Assembly: GCA_045863335.1 (NCBI GenBank)
Contig: BTVY01000026.1
Span: forward strand, 1-64,000
From: Candidatus Hydrogenedentota bacterium
GTDB taxonomy: Bacteria; Hydrogenedentota; Hydrogenedentia; Hydrogenedentales; SLHB01
Reading direction: 5' to 3'
Length of the DNA: 64,000 bases
The notes beneath the pieces are model-generated. The model was not told where the DNA came from. It was given only the letters and a program-made list of their open reading frames with translations, and searched no databases. The first letter of the stretch is position 1, and every line of letters begins with the position of its first letter. Made by a program: the position numbers and the translations under genes. Positions 36,664 to 47,646 of the stretch are shown here, piece by piece.

Positions 36664-36698
36664 CGTTCTCGTGATTTTTGTTCTCCATCTTTTGGTCA

Positions 36699-36740
36699 TT
36701 CGAACTTGTTTCGGATTTCGTGCTTCGGATTTCGAATTTC
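36699..36740. repeat. Short TTCGGAT/TTCGAA-type degenerate tandem repeat
   Basis: ttcgaacttgtttcggatttcgtgcttcggatttcgaatttc. Confidence 0.6.
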
Positions 36741-36868
36741 GCGCACGGTTGCGGCCAAATGCCGCGCTGGGCTATTATCGGCTCACGGGAACGCCGGGGG
36801 TGAAGCCGGTATTGAGATTCAGCTAAACGCATTGGCTGGTTCGTGTTCCGTTCAAGGAAGGACCTGAG

Positions 36869-39565: not shown

Positions 39566-39994
39566 ATGGCACCCACGACTTGGAGAGACGAATCCGGCGT
39601 CACCTTGCTGGAACTGACCGTCGCGTCAGGGATTCTGGCCGTGGCGTTGGTGCTTTTGATGGGGGGCCTGGTCTCCATTGCGGATACGAACGAAATCACC
39701 GAAAACCAGTCCATGGCCAGTTCCCATCTAGAGAGCGTGATCGAAGAAATCCAGGCCTTGCCATACGACCAGCTTCTCGAGTATCAGCCGCCGGCGCTGC
39801 CGGGATTGGGTGCAACATCCACGGTCCAGGTCGCGGGTATTGATTCTGGTGGAAACCAGGTTCTGTTTCCCGTCGATCCCGCGACGCTGGGTACACCGTT
39901 GCCAAACCCGACGGAAGTGCAGGTGACCATTACGTGGAACGACGTCCGCGGGCGGCCCTACACCGCGCGCGCGTCGACCCTGTGCAGGAGGTAG
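39566..39994 (+). CDS. Minor pilin, PilV-like (cassette 1)
   Basis: Class III signal G|VTLLE followed by a hydrophobic helix. Confidence 0.85.
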   Translation: MAPTTWRDESGVTLLELTVASGILAVALVLLMGGLVSIADTNEITENQSMASSHLESVIEEIQALPYDQLLEYQPPALPGLGATSTVQVAGIDSGGNQVLFPVDPATLGTPLPNPTEVQVTITWNDVRGRPYTARASTLCRR

Positions 39995-39996
39995 TC

Positions 39997-40620
39997 ATGC
40001 GAGGGCGCAACCACGGTATGACCCTTATCGAACTCATGATCGTTGTGGCCATTTTGACGATCGTGTTGGGAATCTTGTTCGTACTCGGCGATAACCTTCA
40101 GCAATCGGTGGCCGCGCAGGAGGCGCGCGTCACGACACAGGATGATGTGCGCATGGCGATGCAGCGAATCATGCTCGAACTTCGCCAGAGCGCACGGGCA
40201 TCCATCCCATGGAACACGCTACCCAACGCGGTCATCACCTACCGCAGGGCCGAAGATGTCGACGGAAATGGTACGGCCGTCGACGTCGGCGGCTTTCTTG
40301 AACTCGGCGCCCAACGAACGATTCAGCGTGACACAAACGACGCCAACGGCGACGGGCGCACGACGACCCAACTGGTGATGATCGAGGGGAATCAAGTCAC
40401 CGTTCTCGCGAATGGGCTGCTCGAGAACGAGGACGCGAATGCCGACGGCATTCTCAGCGCGGGCGAAGATAGTAACAACAACGGGGTCCTGGAGCGCGGG
40501 GTGTGGTTCGAGCCGGTCGGGGCCGGACTGCGTATTACGTTGCAGGCGCAACGATCGCCAGGACCAAGGAGCCAGGTGATAACGTCCCAACTGACGGAGA
40601 TCGTGGTTCCGAGGAACTGA
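39997..40620 (+). CDS. Minor pilin, PilW-like (cassette 1)
   Basis: G|MTLIELMIVVAIL; DxDxNG-type loops. Confidence 0.85.
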   Translation: MRGRNHGMTLIELMIVVAILTIVLGILFVLGDNLQQSVAAQEARVTTQDDVRMAMQRIMLELRQSARASIPWNTLPNAVITYRRAEDVDGNGTAVDVGGFLELGAQRTIQRDTNDANGDGRTTTQLVMIEGNQVTVLANGLLENEDANADGILSAGEDSNNNGVLERGVWFEPVGAGLRITLQAQRSPGPRSQVITSQLTEIVVPRN

Positions 40621-40622
40621 CT

Positions 40623-42299
40623 ATGATTAAAAACACCCCCAGACGAGAGGAAGGAATGGCGTTGCTCATTGCGACGATATTCGTCGCCATCGCTATCCTC
40701 ATGCTGAGCGCGCTTTCCGTGCGCGTGATTCAACAAAACAACCAGTCCCTTCAGTACAAGCTGTACAACGACGCGTTCACTGGCCTCGAATCGGCGCTGG
40801 CAGAAAGCTGGGTCGAGTTGGAGACGGGGCAGGACGGCATGGTCGGACTTGGTGTGTGGTCGCCGCCCGTCGGCTCGACGGGCCGGGTGCTGCCCACCTT
40901 CGACGACAGCGGCGTGCTGCCCGAAATGAGTTCCACCCAGCCGACCGTCCAGTACATGGCCTATGCCGACGACTGGTCCAGCAATGGCGAAGATGACGAC
41001 GGCGACGGCACTATCGATGACACCGGCGAGAACTTCACCTATACCGTCTACGCGTTCAGCCAGAATCGCGGCATTCAAAGAAACGTGGAAGTCGTGCTCA
41101 AGGGATTCGACGTCAACGTATGGCGCAACGCGATCTTTGCAGGCAACGGCCAGGCCGGAGGGCTTATCAACGGAAACGTCAGCATTCACGGCTCCGTCCA
41201 TTTGCTCGGAAGCAACGTGGTCAATGGGAATACGGTTTTGTCTGCCATCGACCTGAGCGGCACCAGCCTGATTCACAACAATTATGTGGGCATTCCGGCA
41301 GACTTGGCCGCCCGGATCCCGGCCCTCGATACGGTCCTCTTCGATGGCGAGATGGTCCAAACGCTGGAAGCCAAGTTGCGCGTCAAGAACGGCCTCGTAG
41401 GTATGTCCGGCAACTCGGAAATCGGCGAGCCGAACATCAGCGGAAACACCATCAAGGAAACCATGGATGGTACCTACGTCAGTGATGGATGGACAGGCAC
41501 GTCGGTCAACGACGACGGCGGACGGGGCGACCCCACGAACGTGTGGAGCGACAACGGGTGGGATGACTCGTACGATCTCGGCGACAAAGTGCCGATGCCG
41601 TTCCTGGCCGATGACTACCGCGAGTTGGGCACGGGAAACACGTACATCAATCCTTCCACGCTAACGAATTACACCCATGGAGAGTATTTCGAGCAGGTTC
41701 TGGCGGGAACGCCGTACACCGGGAACATGACGATTCAGGCCAACCAGAACTTCTACTACAACGCGACCCGGCCTTCAGAAGTGAATCCAGCGGGGCGGCT
41801 GGGTACGGATGACTACATTTATTTCGACGCGGCCACAAATCGCATGGAGATCAACGGCCAGATCCAGGTCAACGGCGACCTGGTGATTACCCGAGGCGGC
41901 GGTAACGACAAGAGCATCGACTACACGGGACGCGCCGCCCTTCTGGTCAAAGGCAATGTCACCCTTGACACGGACCTGCGTTCCATGAACGCCAACGGGA
42001 CCACGGCGAACAGCTTCCCTGCCGCCAATATTCTCGGAATCATGGCAGAGGGCAACATGACCGTCGGTTCGCTTTCACAACTGACCCTGATGGGCGCCTT
42101 CTACGCGCAGGGGACCGTTCAGTCCTCAAAGCAGACCACGACGATCGGAACCTTTGTCGGCAGTTATTTTGATATGGGAACCAACGTTCCCGAGATTTAT
42201 CAAGTCCCCAGCTTGGCCGATAATCTGCCGCTTGGCATGATCGGCGCTTATCCTATCCTCGTTTTCGACCAAGTCGCCTGGCGTGAGATTGGCACATGA
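40623..42299 (+). CDS. PilX-like minor pilin with large beta-rich C-terminal domain (cassette 1)
   Basis: G|MALLIATIFVAI lacking E5 (PilX/GspK trait); N/G/T-rich body. Confidence 0.8.
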   Translation: MIKNTPRREEGMALLIATIFVAIAILMLSALSVRVIQQNNQSLQYKLYNDAFTGLESALAESWVELETGQDGMVGLGVWSPPVGSTGRVLPTFDDSGVLPEMSSTQPTVQYMAYADDWSSNGEDDDGDGTIDDTGENFTYTVYAFSQNRGIQRNVEVVLKGFDVNVWRNAIFAGNGQAGGLINGNVSIHGSVHLLGSNVVNGNTVLSAIDLSGTSLIHNNYVGIPADLAARIPALDTVLFDGEMVQTLEAKLRVKNGLVGMSGNSEIGEPNISGNTIKETMDGTYVSDGWTGTSVNDDGGRGDPTNVWSDNGWDDSYDLGDKVPMPFLADDYRELGTGNTYINPSTLTNYTHGEYFEQVLAGTPYTGNMTIQANQNFYYNATRPSEVNPAGRLGTDDYIYFDAATNRMEINGQIQVNGDLVITRGGGNDKSIDYTGRAALLVKGNVTLDTDLRSMNANGTTANSFPAANILGIMAEGNMTVGSLSQLTLMGAFYAQGTVQSSKQTTTIGTFVGSYFDMGTNVPEIYQVPSLADNLPLGMIGAYPILVFDQVAWREIGT

Positions 42300-42835
42300 G
42301 TGACGTTCAAGACATGGGGTTTCTTCGAAAAAACTGGCATCTGCTTGCCGTATTCGTTGCCGTCGTGGCCGCCATTCCGGTGGTCGCCCTGAGAGAAAAA
42401 GCGCAGCAGCAGAACGCGGCACAGGCCGCTTCCCAGACGATTGATGCAACGGCTGCCCTCGGCGCCAAGTCTCGTATCGAGCCGGTCGCCCCACGGGATA
42501 CTCCACGAGACGCGGCCCTGAAGATCATCGAGTCCCACCGGCAGCGGTTTGAGGCGAACCCTCAAAGCGACGAAGCGCCGGCGCTGCTGAGTGCCATGGG
42601 TAATCTCTACCGGCAGCGATTGACCGACTACGGCCAGGCAGCAAGTTGTTTCGAGCGCCTGCTCACGGAGTACCCGGAAGCGGCGAACACGCGCGATGCG
42701 TACCTCCAACTCGTCATTTGCTACGACCGGCTCGGCGACGTCGAGAATCGCCGCCGAGTCCTTCGGCGAATGATGGACGTGTACCCGCCGGAATCCGAGG
42801 AGCACCTGTTCGCGGTCCGGGAACTGGGACTCTAG
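42296..42835 (+). CDS. Membrane-anchored TPR protein (cassette 1)
   Basis: N-terminal TM; ALLSAMGNLY...YGQAASCFERLLTEYP, AYLQLVICY. Confidence 0.8.
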   Translation: MSDVQDMGFLRKNWHLLAVFVAVVAAIPVVALREKAQQQNAAQAASQTIDATAALGAKSRIEPVAPRDTPRDAALKIIESHRQRFEANPQSDEAPALLSAMGNLYRQRLTDYGQAASCFERLLTEYPEAANTRDAYLQLVICYDRLGDVENRRRVLRRMMDVYPPESEEHLFAVRELGL

Positions 42836-43373: not shown

Positions 43374-43787
43374 ATGCGATTCAAACGTTTGCAGGCAAAA
43401 CACGGCGTGACCCTCCTTGAATTGACCATCGCCATGGCAGTGTTCACGGTCGTTCTGGGGGCGACAGCCCAAGCGCTCATCTCGTATTACGTCGCCTTGG
43501 ACACCCAGAATCAACGCCACACCGCCGTGCGAAACTGCACCGGCATTGTCAGCAACATGCGCGACGTCCGCGACGCAAACCCCGAAAACTTCCCTGACGC
43601 GGTCGTGGCGCTCTGGCCGGACGGCGCCGAAGTGCCAAATGCGGGATCGCTTCCCCAAGAAGTCATCACGGTCGACTACGTCAATCCGGCGAGCAATCCC
43701 CTGGAAATCACGATACGCAGCCAATGGGTGGATCTACGCGGGCGCCCCGTGTTCCTCGATGTCTCCACCCTGTTGACGGATCGGTAA
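43374..43787 (+). CDS. Minor pilin, PilV-like (cassette 2)
   Basis: G|VTLLELTIAMAVF; C-terminal NPLEITIRSQWVDLRGRP matches cassette 1 NPTEVQVTITWNDVRGRP. Confidence 0.85.
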   Translation: MRFKRLQAKHGVTLLELTIAMAVFTVVLGATAQALISYYVALDTQNQRHTAVRNCTGIVSNMRDVRDANPENFPDAVVALWPDGAEVPNAGSLPQEVITVDYVNPASNPLEITIRSQWVDLRGRPVFLDVSTLLTDR

Positions 43788-43801: not shown

Positions 43802-44431
43802 ATGGGAGCAAAGGGATTCACGCTGGTTGAGCTCGTCATCTCCATGGCGATACTTACCATTATCAGCGTGCTAGGTGTTGTAGCCCTGCGCACGTCGACG
43901 ACCTCCGTGGCCACCGCGGAGAGCAAGGCCGACGTGCAGGACAACATTCGCGACGCGCTGGCAAGCATGGCCAGGGAACTCCAGATGGCCTCGAAAACCG
44001 CGGACGATTCCTTGACGCCGCCGCTCGTGGAGGTTGCGGTCAATGCCAATCCGGCCGTGGGCAGCCCGGCGGAACTCGTGTTCCAGACGCCGCTGAACGG
44101 CTCGGGCCGCAGCTGGTCGCAAGTCATCCGGTACCGCCATATCAATGAGGACGCGAACGAGAACGGACGCCTCGACGAAGGCGAAGATCTCGACGGGGAC
44201 GGCGTACTGAGCCGCCGCATCCTGCGCATTCAGGATCGTAACGGCGACGGCGACACGACGGACGACGGCGAGCAGATGCCCGTGGGGGGCGCCAACGATC
44301 TGAACAACGTACAGTTCGTCCGTGTTGGGGATATCGTGACGATTACGCTTACGGCGGAAAAGTTCCTGTCCGGCCGCCGCTCGGACCCGGTCCGCCTTAC
44401 GGTTTCATCCGATGTGTATTTGCAGAATTGA
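43802..44431 (+). CDS. Minor pilin, PilW-like (cassette 2)
   Basis: GGAGG RBS; G|FTLVELVISMAIL; NEDANENGRLDEGEDLDGDG. Confidence 0.85.
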   Translation: MGAKGFTLVELVISMAILTIISVLGVVALRTSTTSVATAESKADVQDNIRDALASMARELQMASKTADDSLTPPLVEVAVNANPAVGSPAELVFQTPLNGSGRSWSQVIRYRHINEDANENGRLDEGEDLDGDGVLSRRILRIQDRNGDGDTTDDGEQMPVGGANDLNNVQFVRVGDIVTITLTAEKFLSGRRSDPVRLTVSSDVYLQN

Positions 44432-44486
44432 GGCCGGTGCCGAGCGGACTCTGAACCGGGCATCTTGCCGCAAGGAGGAGATCTCC

Positions 44487-46715
44487 ATGGGATACAAGCG
44501 CAGGCATCAAGAGGGCATGGCCCTCGTGCTGGTCGTACTCGCGATGATCGTCGTACTGGGCGCCATTACGGTTGTGGTGGCGCGCGTGCATACGGCGAAA
44601 ATGCGCACCGACGCCGCCGTCGACCAGGCGCGACTGGACGAAGTGTGCAAGGCGGGTATCGACCTCGGTATCGAACGGATTTGGCACCAATACGTGATCG
44701 GCCAAGGCAACACCACCGGTAACCTGGCCTCGTACATGGTGTTCATTAATAACGTGATCCCGAACAACGAGGACTTGAACGGCAACGGCGAGGAAGACGG
44801 CGCCGAATTCGACATGGACGGCGACGGCGACTTCGAGATTGCCGATCCGATTCTGATTGTGGAGGAAGACGACAATCGTACCTTGCCGTCTGGCGGCCAG
44901 ATCGTGCAGGTATCGCTCGCCCGAACCGATGATGTTACCGGCACGACCGTGACCATCCGTGCGACCGGCCGCGTCGGCCAGCGTACAGCGGCCGCGACGC
45001 AGACCATTCGCGTCGCGGGCGAGCTGTTCGACGGTTTCGAATATGGAATCATGGCGAACAATATCAACTGTATTTTGTGCCACGCGGAAGTGCAGTCGCT
45101 CGACCTGTTCCGGAACAGCGACCCCTCGCAGTTCGGCACGTTTGACCGGATCAAGGTTGCGGCCCTTGAATCCCTGCTGATTCGCACCAGCGAAAATGTC
45201 AACACCCATTTCGCGGGGACCACCTACACGCGCGGCCAGGTGTACAACCAAGCGGGAACTCCGTTCACGGCCTCGACACTCGCCTCGTCTACGTTCAAGG
45301 CCTATCACTTCAATTCCAGCAACGGCAAGATTTCGCAGGACGGTTCTGGCAACATGCAGGTCACCAATCTCGCCAACGCGGGTACCGACGGCGACGGTAT
45401 GCTGGACCAGTTTGCGAACCTGTACCTCGACTACCCGACCGAAGATAACCTGATGACAGACGGCACGCTGCCGGAGGACTTCCCGACGCCTTATCCGGAC
45501 GACGACGGCGACCGGTATGTGGACGACGACGAGTTCTCGCGGGTGATCAACAGCACGAACGGGTCGATCACCTTTGAGCTGGATCCGTCCGAGGTGACCG
45601 GTTCCGTGACGGCGGGCGTGGCCTATGGCGTACCGACGGGTTCGGCCTATACCGGCGAATCCCTGCCCACCGCCTCGAATGGCGCCTTGACGACGCTCAC
45701 CGACGAGGGTTCCTACGACGGGAATCTCATCCTCATCGGCACGGAGGACGATCCTATCGTGATCGATAAGAAGGTCGCGGTCGACGGCGACTTGATCATC
45801 AAAGGCAAGGTCAAAGGATGGGGCCAGATCTTCGTGCGCGGCAATGTGTATGTCGCTGGTGACGTAACCTACGCGGATGCGCCGGGCGAATTCGGTGTTG
45901 CCGAAGACGGCACGACCAATGGGTTCGCGTTGACGGCCGGCGGCAGCATCATGATGGGCGACTACTTGACCATCCGCGCCAAGAAGCACACGGCCGACAC
46001 GGGCAAGTATCCCAGCGGCGGTTTCATCGACATGCGCGATGACCACGACACGCAGAACATCACCAAGAGCGGCACGACCCAGACGGTTCAGATGGGCTAT
46101 TTCGACGACGGCGTCGTGGATGCAGGCTGGTCGCAGGGCGCCCAGGACCAGATCAGTTTCACCACATCGGAAATCATGCTGTTCAACGAGATGGAGTACC
46201 AGAAGGCCCAGGCGGACCCGAACTACACGGCCCGCTACTACCGGCTGCGCCCCGATCAGCCTTTGTATCGGTACGTGTCCAGCGACGAACATACGGTCAA
46301 GTACAGCGAATCGGGCGTGCTGACCATCTCCGATCCCGGCACCGCGGCCATCCACGACCTGAACCCTAACAACTTCTGGGTCAGCGAAGATCAGTTGCGC
46401 AACTTCTGGTGGGCCGACGAAATGACGCGGCCCTCCAGCGGGCGGCCCTTCCAGTTCGACGGTCTCCTCTATTCCAACAACAGCATCTACGCCATCACGC
46501 GGAGCAGCGACCGGCACAAGTCGAACACGCGCGGCCAGATGACCATCCGCGGCAGCGTGATCTCCGCGGACCTGGGCGTGCTCGTGCCAGGCCCCGATTT
46601 CAGTGTGCCGCGGGACGCCTTGAAGCTGTATTACGACAAGCGCGTGGCAGACTTTCTCCGTGTCGAAGACACCACCCAGGTCGCCTTCCAGCGTCTGGCC
46701 TACCGGATAGACTAG
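44487..46715 (+). CDS. PilX-like minor pilin with large C-terminal domain, Ca-binding loops and a CxxCH motif (cassette 2)
   Basis: AAGGAGG RBS; G|MALVLVVLAM lacking E5; NEDLNGNG, DMDGDGD, DDDGDRYVDDDE; CILCH. Confidence 0.8.
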   Translation: MGYKRRHQEGMALVLVVLAMIVVLGAITVVVARVHTAKMRTDAAVDQARLDEVCKAGIDLGIERIWHQYVIGQGNTTGNLASYMVFINNVIPNNEDLNGNGEEDGAEFDMDGDGDFEIADPILIVEEDDNRTLPSGGQIVQVSLARTDDVTGTTVTIRATGRVGQRTAAATQTIRVAGELFDGFEYGIMANNINCILCHAEVQSLDLFRNSDPSQFGTFDRIKVAALESLLIRTSENVNTHFAGTTYTRGQVYNQAGTPFTASTLASSTFKAYHFNSSNGKISQDGSGNMQVTNLANAGTDGDGMLDQFANLYLDYPTEDNLMTDGTLPEDFPTPYPDDDGDRYVDDDEFSRVINSTNGSITFELDPSEVTGSVTAGVAYGVPTGSAYTGESLPTASNGALTTLTDEGSYDGNLILIGTEDDPIVIDKKVAVDGDLIIKGKVKGWGQIFVRGNVYVAGDVTYADAPGEFGVAEDGTTNGFALTAGGSIMMGDYLTIRAKKHTADTGKYPSGGFIDMRDDHDTQNITKSGTTQTVQMGYFDDGVVDAGWSQGAQDQISFTTSEIMLFNEMEYQKAQADPNYTARYYRLRPDQPLYRYVSSDEHTVKYSESGVLTISDPGTAAIHDLNPNNFWVSEDQLRNFWWADEMTRPSSGRPFQFDGLLYSNNSIYAITRSSDRHKSNTRGQMTIRGSVISADLGVLVPGPDFSVPRDALKLYYDKRVADFLRVEDTTQVAFQRLAYRID

Positions 46716-46728
46716 AGGAGCGGAACGT

Positions 46729-47646
46729 ATGACCAAGTTTTCACTTTCACTTGCCCTCGTCACCGGAATCGCATTTGCAGTCGCCGCATCCGCCGATACC
46801 GTGTACTTTCCGGACGGGACGACGGTAGACGGCGTCGTCACGGAGGTGAATGCGAATTGCATCGCCATCGAATCCGGCGGCGGGCGAATGCTCGTTCAGA
46901 CGAATCGAATCGCGCGCGTCGAAAAGAACGACAAAACCGGCACGCTCAATGTGAGCAAGACAAGCCCCTGGACGGTCAAGATCGAGAAAGAGATGCGCGA
47001 GAAGACCGGCATGACCCAGGAACAACGCGAAGAGATCGTGCGCATCATCGACCGCCTCGCCGCTGAGGATAACAACGAGCGGGCCCTATCGATCAAACGA
47101 CTCGTCGCCTTGCAGCAGGAAGTGGACGTGTTCAAGTTTCTCGTGAACACCATGAGCAGTTATGGCGCCCGCACCAAGCCGGGCGTGCTCGAAGTGCTGA
47201 TGGCCATCAACCGCGACGACGCGATTCCCGTCGTCCGGTCCTGCGCCACCGATCAGGTGCCGTCGAATCGGGCGGCCGCGCTGAAGATCATGGGCGAAGC
47301 GAAGGACGTGGCGTCCCTTGAAACGATCGCGCGCGGCATGGTCGATATCGACGAATCCGTGCGCGTCGCCGCCGCCGCCGCGCTCGCCGCAACCGGAAGC
47401 AAGCGGGCGACCCCGTTGCTCATCGATGGACTGGACAATCTCGACAAGCGCGTCGTCAACGCCTGCATGATGGCCTTGACAAGCTTGTGGAGCACGGAGG
47501 AAAGCCCGGTCAAGTTCGACGCGCCGGAGGGTTGGAAGTCGTTCTGGGCAGAGCGGGAAACGAGCGTGGCAGAACCCATCCGGATAGCGCAGCTCGAACC
47601 CCTCTTCGTGCCCGAGCCCGGACAGTACGTACTGGTTCATGAATAA
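46729..47646 (+). CDS. Secreted HEAT-repeat protein (cassette 2)
   Basis: Signal peptide then DTVYFPDGTTVDG small beta domain; HEAT repeats NRAAALKIMG and VRVAAAAALA. Confidence 0.78.
   Translation: MTKFSLSLALVTGIAFAVAASADTVYFPDGTTVDGVVTEVNANCIAIESGGGRMLVQTNRIARVEKNDKTGTLNVSKTSPWTVKIEKEMREKTGMTQEQREEIVRIIDRLAAEDNNERALSIKRLVALQQEVDVFKFLVNTMSSYGARTKPGVLEVLMAINRDDAIPVVRSCATDQVPSNRAAALKIMGEAKDVASLETIARGMVDIDESVRVAAAAALAATGSKRATPLLIDGLDNLDKRVVNACMMALTSLWSTEESPVKFDAPEGWKSFWAERETSVAEPIRIAQLEPLFVPEPGQYVLVHE

Follow-up and report, generated by a model that had tools for sequence, protein, structure and literature searches.

Several described systems come close to the locus considered here, according to the accessible portions of the papers cited. 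ComZ of Thermus thermophilus (PDB 6QVI) combines a pilin with a solenoid, an architecture argued to fit the pilus tip only (PMC6561018). In cyanobacteria, a β-solenoid PilX has been proposed to replace PilY1 as the cap, and each of two PilX sets primes its own kind of pilus (PMC13759059). TfcP of Myxococcus xanthus, a separate protein of the periplasm, has the fold of a cytochrome c, with His/Cys ligation, and helps PilY1 (PMC8833165). The sCache_heme domains (DUF3365/Tll0287) carry a CxxCH motif, about 99% conserved, on an extracytoplasmic fold that is not that of a cytochrome; they bind heme c with a variable sixth ligand, some of them are NO sensors, and they provide a precedent for heme c on such a fold (PMC12889525).

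The locus compared with these systems lies in a window of 64,000 nucleotides (the whole stretch of DNA that was analysed) from a Candidatus Hydrogenedentota bacterium, and encodes a prepilin, P0001, with a single CxxCH motif (Table 1). Like ComZ, P0001 has a prepilin N-terminus, a predicted solenoid inserted ahead of the final pilin strand, and core minor pilins as neighbours; it differs from ComZ in its length of 742 aa, its CxxCH, its strong acidity (54 K+R against 103 D+E) and its HEAT partner gene. ComZ, a competence tip required for transformation, binds DNA, and in the accessible text heme is unmentioned for it (PMC6561018); the net acidic head of P0001 would speak against ComZ-like DNA binding. 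The cyanobacterial PilX, compared by its description, shares the architecture of P0001, and its two sets parallel the two cassettes found here; the word "heme" occurs 0 times in the main text of that paper (PMC13759059). TfcP resembles P0001 in having a single CxxCH and in belonging to a minor-pilin cluster, and its role is other than electron transport (PMC8833165). In contrast to TfcP, P0001 carries the motif inside the pilin, on the solenoid, with neither a conserved third Cys nor a stand-alone cytochrome domain. The fold of P0001 is unrelated to that of sCache_heme; in addition, P0001 is a filament subunit to which no transducer is linked, whereas many sCache_heme domains are fused to signalling domains (PMC12889525).

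With c-type cytochromes P0001 shares a conserved CxxCH, an extracytoplasmic head, as its topology implies, and a maturation system in the host. Cytochrome nanowires of the OmcS/OmcZ type consist of multiheme subunits with a continuous heme chain; unlike them, P0001 has one motif per protein, and the other pilin candidates of the genome have none. Both the solenoid pilin architecture (ComZ, cyanobacterial PilX) and the occurrence of a minor-pilin cluster that encodes a heme protein (TfcP) have precedents. In the open literature searched, neither a heme-bearing pilin (the exact phrase returned 0 papers) nor a heme-bound ice-binding-type solenoid was found.

The motif, its host pilin and the fold

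The motif reads tgt att ttg tgc cac (C-I-L-C-H, within NINCILCHAEV) and lies in frame in an ORF at 44412-46715, the likely start of which, at 44487, yields the prepilin P0001. Its residues are C195-I-L-C198-H199, and the sole further cysteine is C54, which is kept in just 53% of the homologues; the sequence agrees with the initial annotation, which had reported the motif and one other Cys. Any CxxCH arose by chance in 24 of 200,000 shuffles of P0001. Among 71 prepilin-like candidates of the genome, which were chosen by a rough pattern and include false positives, P0001 alone carries a CxxCH. The N-terminus consists of a basic leader (KRRHQEG) and then a hydrophobic helix (MALVLVVLAM) without Glu5, and G10, A12 and L13 are conserved in the family. 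Absence of Glu5 is a trait of PilX/GspK pilins. The PilX-like label of the initial annotation rests on signal peptide, operon position and fold, but not on Pfam, where PilX_N gave no match at E<=0.1 and the only match, to MinC_C, was sub-threshold.

The AlphaFold2 model of P0001 (120-sequence alignment; pLDDT 89.2, pTM 0.81) comprises a helix at residues 9-72, pilin strands at 138-180, a β-rich insert at 186-716 and a final pilin strand at 727-741. The predicted architecture is that of ComZ, namely a pilin with an ice-binding-type β-solenoid ahead of the final strand. Foldseek returned three matches of the model at E<=0.001, all of them ComZ chains (best 1.5e-7, with a TM of only 0.22). Re-alignment (VIA) gave Z 12.5 for FfIBP (190 aligned, rmsd 3.1), 12.0 for a DUF3494 domain and 11.8 for ComZ (343 aligned, rmsd 11.3). 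No cytochrome fold occurred among 191 re-aligned Foldseek matches of the whole of P0001, and a sequence search of PDB chains with the family profile gave 0 matches at E<=10. An Atlas search found look-alike clusters in Verrucomicrobiota, Planctomycetota and Armatimonadota.

The model shows the motif as coil rather than helix, at a corner loop in the first solenoid rung, between strands 186-194 and 200-204. It had been placed just after the pilin domain; the model puts it instead in a solenoid inserted in the pilin, with the final pilin strand still to follow. The order of the rungs was inferred from covariation (307 sequences, 321 columns, Meff 205), the scores of which are noisy and uninformative on invariant residues. 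On the strength of the pairs I188-L696, G187-S690, N191-L227 and N194-E228, the rung of the motif (186-204) probably sits between the final rung (690-716) and the rung 222-244; the loop of His677 would then lie two rungs from the motif at the same solenoid corner. Further covarying pairs are N191-A694, V202-I222 and A669-V698, and all pairs named here are within the top 120 or join a residue to its top partner. In addition, the pilin αβ-loop of P0001 contains two DxDxDG-like motifs (residues 96 and 109; window 44772-44828), and both PilW-like genes contain DxxGDG motifs. These are possible calcium sites and are missing from many relatives.

Table 1. Positions in the window of the CxxCH pilin, its parts and the neighbouring pilin genes.
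Feature	Position	Strand	Basis
CxxCH C195-I-L-C198-H199, predicted to attach heme c and to supply its proximal ligand	45069..45083	+	sequence, conservation
ComZ-type PilX-like cap pilin P0001 (predicted), 742 aa	44487..46715	+	ORF, AlphaFold model, fold matches
Class III (prepilin) signal, leader ending in QEG, then hydrophobic helix	44487..44588	+	sequence; modelled helix 9-72
Discontinuous β-solenoid of ice-binding-protein/ComZ type (predicted), residues 181-717	45027..46637	+	model; rung order via covariation
Block 182-328 bearing the motif; wholly deleted in L089 (genome G043)	45030..45470	+	alignment of relatives
His677, candidate sixth heme ligand, host's clade only	46515..46517	+	alignments, tree
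Cassette gene 1, PilV-like minor pilin (probable start)	43374..43787	+	N_methyl match; 66/91 loci
Cassette gene 2, PilW-like minor pilin (probable start)	43802..44431	+	N_methyl match; 73/91 loci
Gene 4, conserved in Hydrogenedentota: exported protein with a β domain at the N-terminus, plus HEAT repeats	46729..47646	+	76/91 loci
Cassette 1: PilV-like 39566-39994, PilW-like about 39997-40620, CxxCH-free solenoid PilX homologue 40623-42299	39566..42299	+	

Conservation, losses and the sixth ligand

The conservation of both cysteines and the histidine, raised in the initial annotation as a point to check, was confirmed in four sets of relatives. All three residues are present in 121/121 proteins (the query plus, out of 273 matches, the best 120) and in 134/135 site-covering representatives, taken from the best 150 of 892 clusters that a profile search returned at E<=0.001. 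In the metagenome loci of a distant clade, 69/71 covering ORFs carry the motif and 11 ORFs end short of the site, and a further 116/116 relatives, Planctomycetota where named, have it. Across the distant relatives, the named taxa are Planctomycetota and one Methylomirabilales. The 135 covering representatives have a median identity of 31% to the query (range 25-69%), and in 55/134 representatives the motif cysteines are the only two. There is one CxxCH per family protein, with both middle residues hydrophobic. The family of the CxxCH pilin was found in 98 of 135 Hydrogenedentota genomes. Among 91 fetched loci, which include some genomes twice, many contig ends and the calls of a rough gene caller, the motif is present in 88 of 95 family ORFs; the other seven are six contig-edge fragments and the ORF of L089. 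Either the pilin gene or the cassette is duplicated in tandem in L045/L078, L058/L096, L131, L132 and L133, and both copies carry the motif, save for the truncated copy of L058/L096.

Three losses of the motif were found. In P0376 (678 aa) the positions of C, C and H are taken without gap by R, V and R. In L158/L169 they are V or F, R and Q. The ORF L089:5140-6759 (G043) lacks residues 182-328, the His677 loop and the adjoining HEAT gene; it still stands in the pilV-pilW-pilX order and may be seen as a natural heme-free control. On a 136-sequence FastTree phylogeny, computed with the motif columns left out and rooted at the midpoint, the three losses nest separately among motif-bearers (enclosing supports 1.0, 1.0 and 0.997). 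In each of them C, C and H vanish jointly. Since the histidine is always lost together with both cysteines, one ligand shared by the three residues is suggested. As far as so few as three events can tell, joint loss agrees with heme c, is compatible with a metal site and poorly matches a plain disulfide. In addition, Arg at either Cys position would speak against a buried Cys pair.

The distribution of the candidate sixth ligand is much narrower than that of the motif. His677 is present in 120/121 close homologues, the exception being a fragment, and in 33/98 aligned representatives of the wide family. It is confined to a 25-member clade around the query (support 0.999), of which 20 members have it. 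Even within Hydrogenedentota, L084 and L087 keep the CxxCH and have no His677. No family-wide conserved His, Met or Cys that could act as sixth ligand was found in the wide-family alignments, and in the Planctomycetota clade every other His or Cys stays below 50%, and the best Met is present in 98/116. His677 as a universal sixth ligand is ruled out by its clade-limited distribution. Therefore, the sixth site appears to be either clade-specific or open. A variable sixth site would speak against an electron carrier of fixed potential, and it resembles the ligation described for sCache_heme in the accessible text (PMC12889525).

Heme maturation and readings of the motif

The genome has three Cytochrom_C_asm matches with two adjoining ResB loci, which gives two ResB+CcsA pairs, and two CcsA genes have intact WWD motifs. 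CcmE was not found in the genome. Of the Ccm and Res maturation genes named in the initial annotation, System II (ResB+CcsA) is thus present but Ccm is not, and the native route would therefore be System II. For CcsBA, both thiols and the His are reported to be required and the adjacent helix to be dispensable (PMC8112865, accessible portion). The maturation family occurs in 130/135 genomes of the phylum and in 97/98 carrier genomes (the carrier with no match, G050, is 93% complete); being this widespread, its co-occurrence with the CxxCH pilin is compatible with heme attachment but does not discriminate. By a rough gene call, 80 of 4,770 genes have a CxxCH, with up to 19 motifs in one; multiheme proteins are among them, as are some non-heme proteins of the cytoplasm. 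One of them is presumably L31-like, cytoplasmic and free of heme, and there too an invariant His follows the CxxC. As to pilus machinery, nine PilT-family genes of the genome exceed the NCBIfam cut-off and seven secretin matches exceed theirs, ComEC lies on another contig, and there are many near-identical 'FTLIELLVVIAIIGILAAILLPAL' prepilin-type genes.

The conservation of the motif, the joint losses and the maturation genes make it likely that heme c is bound covalently at the motif of P0001. Our preferred reading, to which we give a probability of roughly one half, is that P0001 caps a retractile type IV pilus and bears a heme c that is a single redox or gas-ligand probe, not a wire. The prepilin signal and the place of P0001 as last pilin of a pilV-pilW-pilX cassette are seen in the sequence. 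The predicted pilin fold with its bulky solenoid would, by analogy with ComZ, leave room for P0001 at the tip only. The head would reach the periplasm unfolded, and CcsBA of System II would attach heme to the motif. The heme would then sit at a solenoid corner, as the rung order implies, with His677 from two rungs away as the sixth ligand in Hydrogenedentota; outside this phylum the sixth site would be variable or open. More speculatively, extension and retraction of the pilus might ferry the heme between the outside and the periplasm, and the oxidation or ligand state of the heme might tune adhesion or retraction, or might be read on return. No signalling gene linked to the cassette was found in the 91 Hydrogenedentota or 77 metagenome loci, which leaves the sensing step speculative.

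The most serious alternative, which we regard as unlikely, is that there is no heme, that C195 and C198 form a disulfide at the first-rung β-arc or, with H199 and an acidic residue, a metal site, and that the cap is an ordinary adhesin. The modelled position of the motif as coil between strands agrees with this, as do the two hydrophobic middle residues. By the register of the solenoid, which we assume from the motifs of ice-binding solenoids, C195 and C198 could point into the core and pair as a disulfide, and the protein that we take to be L31-like illustrates an invariant His after CxxC in a cytoplasmic non-heme protein. However, His199 is as invariant as the cysteines and was lost jointly with them three times, which a plain disulfide fails to explain, and no fourth Cys or His ligand is conserved. 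Adjacent Cys and His on one zinc would be unusual, yet they have the geometry of heme c. System II, which needs little beyond CxxCH, is also present (PMC8112865, accessible portion).

If heme c is bound, its role might be structural, in that it ties the first rung of the solenoid to the last ones or serves as a folding checkpoint, so that the tip is built only if heme can be had, in the manner of TfcP. We consider this quite improbable, even though covariation places the motif at the junction of the N- and C-terminal rungs of the discontinuous solenoid, His677 is contributed from the C-terminal side, and TfcP offers, in the accessible text, a precedent of heme for stability in a minor-pilin cluster (PMC8833165). 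The motif-free P0376 (678 aa) and L089 keep long open frames with a solenoid, the cassette-1 family makes a related fold without the motif, and His677 is limited to one clade. About as improbable is a tip that hands electrons one at a time to minerals, humics or partner cells, shuttled by retraction, or that works as a peroxidase-like site on whatever surface it contacts. The many multiheme proteins of the genome (80 CxxCH genes, up to 19 motifs) and its several PilT motors would fit such a tip, as would a heme that is exposed or five-coordinate; but there is one heme per tip and no heme motif in the other pilin candidates, a cytochrome neighbour occurs in only 7/91 loci with none recurring in the 77 metagenome loci, and the structural matches include no cytochrome fold. 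One heme site, no conserved cytochrome neighbour and no family-wide sixth ligand together make a wire unlikely. Thus, of the redox-sensing or electron-transfer tip first proposed, the heme c tip pilin is likely to stand, whereas the case for electron transfer is weak.

The preferred reading of a heme-bearing cap could be carried further. It might be supposed that the cap family in Hydrogenedentota, Planctomycetota and Methylomirabilota consists of hemoproteins, that the retractile pilus, moving one redox or gas-binding centre outward and back in, mechanically samples the redox state of surfaces that it contacts and that cells choose between a heme and a heme-free tip, an extension which we hold as tentative and on the whole doubtful. 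If true, P0001 would be the first pilin with covalent heme, and its heme c would be on a β-solenoid. A real heme would mean that the cytochrome c machinery places a cofactor on a pilus tip, and that redox or gas signals are tied to pilus adhesion or retraction in uncultured bacteria that abound in sludge, sediment and water.

The cassette and its heme-free counterpart

The unit pilV-pilW-pilX-HEAT recurs in Hydrogenedentota, with P0001 as the last pilin of its cassette. The order pilV-pilW-pilX also recurs in the 77 distant metagenome loci, of which six have the HEAT gene, and these six all match the Hydrogenedentota profile closely. The HEAT protein has no conserved Cys, His or internal Met and matches generic HEAT repeats only; these features and its presence in only 6/77 distant loci rule it out as a heme chaperone, or a partner akin to bilin lyases, for the family as a whole. 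The cytochrome neighbour mentioned above is a monoheme cytochrome c gene (PF00034, barely over the cut-off), which follows directly after the HEAT gene at L061:4924-6075 and in six other loci. No recurring cytochrome or sensor gene was found in the 77 metagenome loci. A thioredoxin-reductase-like gene (Pyr_redox_2) lies on the opposite strand directly after the CxxCH pilin in 25 distant-clade loci (L098-L138), which may be plain synteny in one lineage.

The PilX of cassette 1 is a distant homologue of P0001 (HHalign 95%, E 2.6e-8). The initial annotation had noted that this paralogue lacks the motif, and the same is true of its family, in which CxxCH occurs in 0/121 proteins. The cassette-1 family was found in 99 of the 135 genomes. 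Both pilin types are present in 74 genomes, the CxxCH type only in 24, the CxxCH-free type only in 25 and neither in 12. Therefore, the proposal that the tip is switchable with a heme-free tip holds in so far as a heme-free homologue exists and commonly co-occurs; however, the two are usually apart in the genome, the cassette-1 type being adjacent in only four fetched loci and megabases off in two closed genomes. That these are two alternative pilus tips is plausible from such a distribution. A TPR protein (window 42296-42835) directly follows cassette 1, in the position that the HEAT gene holds after cassette 2.

Contigs of three RNA libraries cover the gene of P0001. One of them is covered flat over all 13.5 kb, as DNA would be, and the runs were retrieved with the P0001 gene itself; therefore the RNA contigs are no proof of transcription. 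The runs with this DNA come, where labelled, from sludge, wastewater and bioreactor samples. At about 36695-36745 of the window, contigs of several runs share a stretch of high depth and then diverge, and this is likely a small repeated element upstream of an ABC ATPase gene.
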